Below, piece after piece: positions 39,981 to 40,682 of a stretch of 50,849 nt of DNA. The stretch lies in the sequence record PP925846.1, one strand, 5' to 3'. Both the position numbers and the translations under genes were made by a program. This stretch comes from Escherichia phage BabyEgg. The stretch's first letter is position 1. The number at the start of each line of letters is the position of its first letter. The notes beneath the pieces are model-generated. The model ran no database searches, was not told the DNA's origin, and saw nothing but the letters and a program-made list of their open reading frames with translations.

Positions 39981-40682
39981 GTGAAGAAAGAAATTGAAAT
40001 CAGCTTTGAACAAATCGAACGAGAAACGTTTGTAGGTAATGCCCTAGCGACAGGAGGCCATTACCAGGCAGTCAAGCCAAATCAATATTTCAAAGTGACG
40101 GGCAACCGATATAACGGAAGCAATACACCGGACGTTGTTCGCGATTTGTGGTCTACTCCGTCAGAGCTTGTTGCATGGATGGAAAGAGAATATGGCGATT
40201 ATGACATCGACGCGGCAGCCAGCAAAGATAATGCTGTATGTGAAAAATTCTACAGCAAGGAAACTAATTGCTTAAAGCGTTGGTGGGGTAGCAATAAGCA
40301 CATCTGGCTTAATCCACCATACAGCAACATCACGCCATTCGTTAAGAAAGCGATTGAGCAGATGGAGCACAACAACCAGATCGACATGCTGTTACCATGC
40401 GATACATCAACAGGATGGTTTTATGAAGCGCAACAGCACGCGGCGGAAATAATCTGGATCACTGGAGAAGTTTACAAGGAGGATGGAACAGAATATTCAC
40501 GTACAGGACGCCTGGCGTTTACTTCCGCGCTTACAGGTAAACCAGTACAGGGCAACAACAAAGGCAGCGTTATTTTCATCATGCGTGAACTGAAAGAAGG
40601 CGAGCATCAGAAAACGCGATACGTTAAAATCAGCGACATTTGCCCTTCTGTGGCAGAGCGTCGGGCAAGAAAGCGGAGTTAA
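39981..40682 (+). CDS. dam: DNA N6-adenine methyltransferase (phage Dam-like)
   Basis: DIDAAAS and WLNPPYS motifs; GTG start with RBS gagga. Confidence 0.75.
   Translation: MKKEIEISFEQIERETFVGNALATGGHYQAVKPNQYFKVTGNRYNGSNTPDVVRDLWSTPSELVAWMEREYGDYDIDAAASKDNAVCEKFYSKETNCLKRWWGSNKHIWLNPPYSNITPFVKKAIEQMEHNNQIDMLLPCDTSTGWFYEAQQHAAEIIWITGEVYKEDGTEYSRTGRLAFTSALTGKPVQGNNKGSVIFIMRELKEGEHQKTRYVKISDICPSVAERRARKRS

Follow-up and report, generated by a model that had tools for sequence, protein, structure and literature searches.

A T1-type Dam and a minimal Dcm-like C5-cytosine DNA methyltransferase predicted in the Warwickvirus-like coliphage BabyEgg

Both types of methyltransferase gene considered here are already known from coliphages, the Dam type having been characterised in T1 and retron Ec86 (Eco1) having recently been found to be triggered by the short Dcm type. 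T1 Dam makes G6mATC, as established by DpnI and MboI digestion; T1 DNA is only partly modified by the host Dam, and deletion of T1 dam lowers the burst size by about 40%, even when no restriction system is present (PMC10470545). The closest described cytosine enzyme is that of phage K42, whose genome is 95.4% identical to that of KarlJaspers/Bas06 (bioRxiv 10.1101/2023.08.16.553469; Wang et al., Cell Rep 2024 43:114857). In K42 escapers of retron Ec86, the 711-bp dcm gene was disrupted in four cases out of four; expression of K42 dcm was toxic only when the retron was present, and the C82A/E128A/K175A/K176A mutant, designed with K175 and K176 treated as substrate-binding residues, was inert (10.1101/2023.08.16.553469). 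LC-MS showed that 5-methylcytosine (5mC) was raised on the msDNA by K42 Dcm and not by the quadruple active-site mutant, and Ec86 defence was lost once the CCTGG of the msDNA stem-loop had been turned into AATGG, ACTGG or CATGG; this Dcm is encoded in 34 of 35 Ec86-sensitive phages (10.1101/2023.08.16.553469). Since the strain used, MG1655, is dcm+ and its own Dcm was no trigger (10.1101/2023.08.16.553469), the phage enzyme must differ from the host enzyme in activity, access or site. As to the benefit for the phage, methyltransferases were once proposed to counter restriction, as noted in the BASEL study, which saw no simple pattern linking them with restriction resistance in the Drexlerviridae and in which most Drexlerviridae were very sensitive to restriction.

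The window analysed here is the whole 50,849-nucleotide stretch of Escherichia phage BabyEgg (PP925846.1). Along the whole of region 39,000–48,500, its DNA is 97.9% identical to that of Escherichia phage Jahat_MG145 (Drexlerviridae, Tempevirinae, Warwickvirus), which makes BabyEgg a Warwickvirus-like, T1-like coliphage. At least 80% of this 9.5-kb region is covered in 43 phage records, usually with two genes labelled DNA methyltransferase. The curated BASEL phage FritzSarasin (Bas04) displays the same gene layout, and its two genes are annotated as ‘Dam-like N6-adenine methyltransferase’ and ‘Dcm-like C5 cytosine methyltransferase’. Given that FritzSarasin and other relatives carry both annotated genes, the gene pair is real and already annotated in relatives. 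In BabyEgg, dam follows the helicase and VRR-NUC genes, and the Dcm-like gene lies within a minus-strand block together with a DUF3987 helicase. This context had been described correctly in an earlier, sequence-only reading of the window, which had also recognised two methyltransferases of different chemical classes, a Dam-type N6-adenine enzyme and a C5-cytosine type enzyme; both open reading frames lie where that reading had placed them and contain all the motifs it had cited (DIDAAAS, NPPYS, FDGSG, PPC and ENP). That the Dcm-like gene belongs to an early operon was a suggestion of the same reading. Promoter and terminator scans around both methyltransferase genes yielded no more hits than shuffled sequence did and have no bearing on the timing of expression.

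The gene at positions 39,981–40,682 (plus strand) is clearly predicted to encode a T1-type orphan Dam N6-adenine DNA methyltransferase of 233 residues. It starts with GTG, and a Shine-Dalgarno sequence, GAGGA, lies 7 nt 5′ of this start. The product matches the Pfam family PF05869 ‘Dam’ (1.2e-61, 207.7 bits for a cutoff of 28.1), NCBIfam TIGR01712 (6e-55, 185.3 bits for a cutoff of 97.05) and PHROG 111 (1.4e-84), and is 67% identical over 218 residues to T1 Dam (YP_003925), which is 237 residues long. The two proteins share both signature motifs: DIDAAAS (residues 75–81; 40,203–40,223, plus strand), which from knowledge of the family we take to be the AdoMet-binding region, corresponds to DLDAAAS in the aligned T1 Dam, and the catalytic NPPYS sequence, a (D/N)PPY motif IV (residues 111–115; 40,311–40,325, plus strand), is identical in T1 Dam. 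What sets the BabyEgg gene apart from the T1 gene is its GTG start, and its GATC activity is predicted from the T1 orthologue. Relatives of the T1-type Dam are present in 1,848 phage records; a sequence search of the PDB with the BabyEgg protein found no solved relative. The order helicase, VRR-NUC, dam is also shared by BabyEgg and T1.

Two features of the neighbouring genes deserve a mention of their own. The VRR-NUC open reading frame (39,489–39,908) overlaps the end of the helicase open reading frame (39,502) by 14 nt (39,489–39,502), which suggests that the two genes may be translationally coupled; this tight junction is common to Jahat and T1. Further downstream, the 372-residue product of 41,532–42,650 (plus strand) combines an N-terminal helix-turn-helix resembling sigma-70 region 4 (residues 11–41), which scores below the Pfam cutoff, with a body belonging to PHROG 704 (‘DNA repair exonuclease’/phosphoesterase), and T1 has kept the same pairing of DNA-binding head with nuclease (ST16).

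The Dcm-like gene occupies positions 47,184–47,894 on the minus strand and encodes a 236-residue protein, identified as a short C5-cytosine DNA methyltransferase by its open reading frame, PHROG 757 and orthology. Its ATG, at 47,894, lies 8 nt after GAGG; a longer, TTG-initiated frame also exists, and the ATG start gives 711 bp, i.e. the length reported for the K42 orthologue. The motifs, assigned by eye, comprise (i) motif I, FDGSG, for AdoMet binding (residues 10–14; 47,853–47,867, minus strand), which follows β-strand 1 in the structural model described below; (ii) motif IV, PPC, with the catalytic Cys82 (residues 80–82; 47,649–47,657, minus strand); (iii) motif VI, ENP, the equivalent of ENV (residues 128–130; 47,505–47,513, minus strand); (iv) KKTCLW (residues 175–180; 47,355–47,372, minus strand), assigned to the motif VIII position from the strand order of the model; (v) a motif IX-like C-terminal helix, RSLTPRGFARAV (residues 219–230; 47,205–47,240, minus strand), which by eye we take to resemble the canonical motif IX, RxLTPRExAR. 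The protein ends six residues past this helix, and no motif X could be recognised in it.

The sequence-only reading had made its C5 assignment depend on profile searches. The Pfam scan (E up to 0.1) and the NCBIfam scan (E up to 1) returned no match for the short protein, including to PF00145 and TIGR00675, respectively; this outcome is overridden by the match to PHROG 757 (‘DNA methyltransferase’; 7e-85 over residues 2–235) and by the close similarity to the KarlJaspers enzyme detailed below. Homologues are numerous, with 3,024 of them in a set of 5.8 billion proteins, and a precomputed Pfam domain is present in 0 of the 120 homologues listed. An exhaustive HMMER search gave 2,057 clusters at 50% identity, the listed members of which are mostly 210–260 residues long. 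With this length shared by most of the members listed from some 2,000 clusters, shortness is a trait of the family: a protein of 236 residues, called unusually short in the sequence-only reading, is in fact the norm, and the possibility that the gene is a truncated form or a pseudogene is ruled out. By tblastn, the gene is found in 1,503 of 50,697 phage records (about 3%), the carriers being Drexlerviridae, Dhillonvirus, rV5-like, T4-like and other phages of Escherichia, Klebsiella, Salmonella and Vibrio.

Conservation within the family bears out the motif assignments. Residues D11, G12, S13, G14, P81, C82, E128, N129, P130 and K175 and the C-terminal IRSLTPRG sequence (R219 to G225 in the motif IX-like helix) are invariant in 22 close homologues, and C82, E128, N129, P130 and K175 remain at least 90% conserved among 40 distant family members. 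Since the residues of FDGSG, PPC and ENP vary little or not at all among 22 to 40 homologues, these motifs are not chance matches. When 40 diverse family members were scanned against Pfam, a single one displayed a weak match to PF00145 (0.0067), so that there is no transitive sequence link to the canonical C5-methyltransferases; likewise, sequence searches of the PDB, whether started from the protein or from the family profile, yielded nothing above threshold, the sub-threshold matches being to DNMT3B and M.HaeIII over motifs I to IV (E 0.1–0.6). Two of the distant members are fusions, one with a D12-class N6-adenine methyltransferase domain (PF02086, 2.5e-48) and the other with an HNH endonuclease domain.

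A confident AlphaFold model of the short protein, built from an alignment of 22 sequences (pLDDT 86.3, pTM 0.87), has the C5-methyltransferase fold. A Foldseek search of the PDB with this model ranked DNMT3B and DNMT3A on top (E 2e-6 to 2e-5), with the prophage C5-methyltransferase 3g7u next. Structure comparison scored 13.8 against DNMT3B (190 residues aligned), 13.3 against the DNA cytosine C5-carboxymethyltransferase 8yf3, 12.3 against 3g7u, 12.0 against DNMT3A, 11.2 against 3lx6, 11.1 against M.HhaI and 10.9 against M.HaeIII; generic Rossmann methyltransferases aligned with the model over about 125–150 residues. We infer from the model that motifs I, IV and VI occupy their canonical positions and that KKTCLW lies on the motif VIII strand. 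The recognition domain of canonical bacterial C5-methyltransferases comprises about 80 residues. By eye, only some 30 residues separate strand 177–182 from helix 213–220 in the model, at the position of this domain, and the model, judged in the same way, suggests that the protein lacks motif X (GNAV) and has no extensive domain for target recognition between motifs VIII and IX.

This architecture sets the phage family apart from each of its better-known counterparts. Despite their position at the top of the structural matches, the catalytic domains of DNMT3A and DNMT3B are only 13–18% identical to the phage protein, which is about 50 residues shorter and devoid of a recognisable motif X. M.HhaI and M.HaeIII, with about 327–330 residues, possess a motif X and a recognition domain, both of which the phage family lacks. 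With E. coli Dcm and M.EcoRII (PF00145), the phage enzyme would share its chemistry and probably its target, hence the ‘Dcm-like’ annotation. However, E. coli Dcm is a protein of 472 residues with a full recognition domain and has no detectable sequence relationship to the phage protein beyond the PC motif: an hhalign comparison of the family profile with E. coli K-12 Dcm gave a probability of 1%, with 25 columns aligned around that motif. The profile comparison with the host enzyme being insignificant, ‘Dcm-like’ designates a presumed activity and not descent from the host dcm. The same result rules out a captured and truncated host dcm as the origin of the gene.

The strongest functional evidence for the BabyEgg protein, although indirect, comes from its orthology with the KarlJaspers and K42 enzymes and would carry over by analogy. 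The short protein is 89% identical, with no gaps, to the Dcm-like protein of KarlJaspers (QXV82308, 236 residues), and residues 121–212 are nearly identical in both. The 27 substitutions that distinguish the BabyEgg protein from the KarlJaspers one fall mostly between residues 30 and 75, and C82, E128, K175 and K176 are all found at the same numbering. The phages belong to different genera, K42 and KarlJaspers being Hanrivervirus and BabyEgg being Warwickvirus-like. By analogy with K42 Dcm, the BabyEgg allele is predicted to produce 5mC and to trigger retron Ec86.

The site content of the genome provides another line of evidence. In the 50.8-kb window, 23 of the 64 palindromic hexamers are absent, versus 44 of the 4,032 non-palindromic ones (both strands), and the median count is 2 for the former versus 11 for the latter. 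GAATTC, GATATC, AAGCTT, CTGCAG and TCCGGA (expected about 25) do not occur, nor does AGGCCT. Palindrome avoidance is the dominant passive strategy of this genome. Among the shorter sites, GGWCC is absent and CCSGG occurs 8 times; by comparison, GATC is retained (248 occurrences) and CCWGG occurs 123 times, i.e. about 2.4-fold more often than in dinucleotide-shuffled sequences (mean 50.6, sd 7.8). T1, which has Dam and in which a Dcm-like gene was not detected by annotation, open reading frame list or degenerate motif searches, contains 83 CCWGG, 65 CCSGG, 24 GGWCC, 235 GATC and 6 TCCGGA sites, this contrast being a single comparison. GGWCC is absent from the Jahat segment, as from the BabyEgg window, and occurs nine times in a partial FritzSarasin segment (28,955–47,665, 18.7 kb); these nine sites and the 24 of T1 indicate that its avoidance is specific to the BabyEgg lineage. 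The retention of GATC and CCWGG, with other sites removed, fits protection by methylation. It is equally compatible with protection by the host Dam and Dcm and with a bias due to very-short-patch repair.

Altogether, we consider it likely, with a probability of roughly 0.8, that BabyEgg encodes the two standard orphan methyltransferases of its lineage, a GATC-specific Dam and a minimal 5mC enzyme, which would protect GATC and CCWGG independently of the host. Both solitary enzymes would belong to the standard equipment of the Tempevirinae (Drexlerviridae). The T1-type Dam would act on phage DNA during replication, methylating the GATC adenine. The minimal C5 enzyme (about 236 residues) would act through a normal catalytic core (FDGSG, Cys82 of PPC, Glu128 of ENP, Lys175/176), with some 30 residues in place of the target-recognition domain, and would place 5-methylcytosine most probably in CCWGG. 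Phage methylation would thereby be independent of the host Dam and Dcm, which some hosts lack or which may not keep pace with rapid phage replication; GATC and CCWGG sites would be protected, and most other palindromic sites would simply have been lost from the genome. The present analysis establishes the identity of the genes, their motifs, fold and orthology, and the site statistics; GATC m6A by T1 Dam, and 5mC and the triggering of retron Ec86 by K42 Dcm, come from published work on the orthologues, and CCWGG specificity, an anti-restriction benefit and expression timing are what we infer for the BabyEgg enzymes. For the Dcm-like enzyme, CCWGG specificity is suggested indirectly by the CCTGG mutants of the msDNA, studied with the K42 enzyme, together with the keeping of CCWGG and the purging of CCSGG in BabyEgg.

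An anti-restriction role of the pair is plausible and partly supported. The sequence-only reading had proposed a layered anti-restriction strategy, and the GATC and CCWGG retention pattern is in keeping with it, but the absence of a simple link between methyltransferases and restriction resistance in the BASEL study is not. It is possible, if rather unlikely, that the main role lies elsewhere, with Dam serving replication, recombination, packaging fitness or protection against MutH nicking, and the Dcm-like enzyme serving regulation or counter-defence while also being a liability through its triggering of retron Ec86. The smaller burst caused by the T1 dam deletion in a host without a tested restriction system (PMC10470545) speaks for such roles, as do the activation of Ec86 by the phage Dcm (10.1101/2023.08.16.553469), the sensitivity of most Drexlerviridae in the BASEL study and the fact that palindrome avoidance already constitutes the main passive defence of the genome. 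On the other hand, GATC and CCWGG remain unpurged while CCSGG and GGWCC are purged, as protective methylation predicts. The BASEL restriction panel may also have omitted enzymes cutting GATC or CCWGG.

The site of the short enzyme is the next point at issue, for the sequence-only reading had suggested a minimal target-recognition domain or a very short site. The minimal domain is borne out by the model, in which about 30 residues link the strand resembling motif VIII to the helix resembling motif IX. A site much shorter than CCWGG, or different from it, would suit so small a recognition region and would accommodate the toxicity of overexpressed K42 Dcm in the presence of the retron as well as the triggering of Ec86 by the phage enzyme and not by the MG1655 host Dcm (10.1101/2023.08.16.553469); in the literature, we found no genome-wide methylome or specificity mapping for any short Dcm-like member. 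We nevertheless regard it as improbable: changing either C of the msDNA CCTGG is enough to lose Ec86 defence (10.1101/2023.08.16.553469), and 8 CCSGG against 123 CCWGG sites in the window argues against the protection of all CCNGG or CC sites. More generally, the DNMT3 enzymes show site specificity although their recognition domains are small as well. As to whether the 236-residue protein makes 5mC on DNA at all, the lack of a Pfam or NCBIfam match and of a recognisable motif X would suit an inactive protein, a DNMT2-like RNA m5C enzyme or one transferring another group (e.g. carboxymethyl). This we hold to be very improbable, because an inactive protein would hardly keep its catalytic Cys and Glu and its AdoMet motif throughout about 2,000 clusters, because the K42 orthologue, and not its quadruple mutant, yields 5mC on DNA by LC-MS (10.1101/2023.08.16.553469), and because a D12-class DNA adenine methyltransferase is the fusion partner in one distant member of the family.

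If phages of this kind carry a GATC Dam and a minimal 5mC enzyme, several consequences follow. Phages with this dcm should be vulnerable to retron Eco1 in hosts such as E. coli B/BL21, and a phage with both genes is expected to be independent of the Dam and Dcm status of its host, which is of practical value for phage therapy and for host-range prediction. What remains novel is the DNA recognition and the specificity of the whole minimal C5 family rather than the BabyEgg window. In a bolder version, which we think unlikely, the family would be a truly minimal type of C5-methyltransferase with an unusual mode of DNA recognition, in which, e.g., a conserved loop (residues 146–176) or a DNMT3-like dimer takes the place of a recognition domain, and its specificity or substrate preference may differ from that of the host Dcm; if true, this difference would explain why Ec86 is triggered by the phage enzyme only.

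Finally, some observations concern the relatives of BabyEgg. The dcm gene is 92.7% identical at the DNA level between Jahat_MG145 and BabyEgg, compared with 97.9% across the surrounding 9.5 kb, and the BabyEgg gene is 97% identical to that of phages tunus, XY3 and G3B1, which indicates local mosaicism. Some 20–39 unannotated GenBank records of the MG065xxx series, labelled as Campylobacter jejuni phages, show about 84% DNA identity to the BabyEgg region, and other MG065xxx ‘Campylobacter phage’ records resemble rV5-like coliphages; these records look like mislabelled or contaminant entries.
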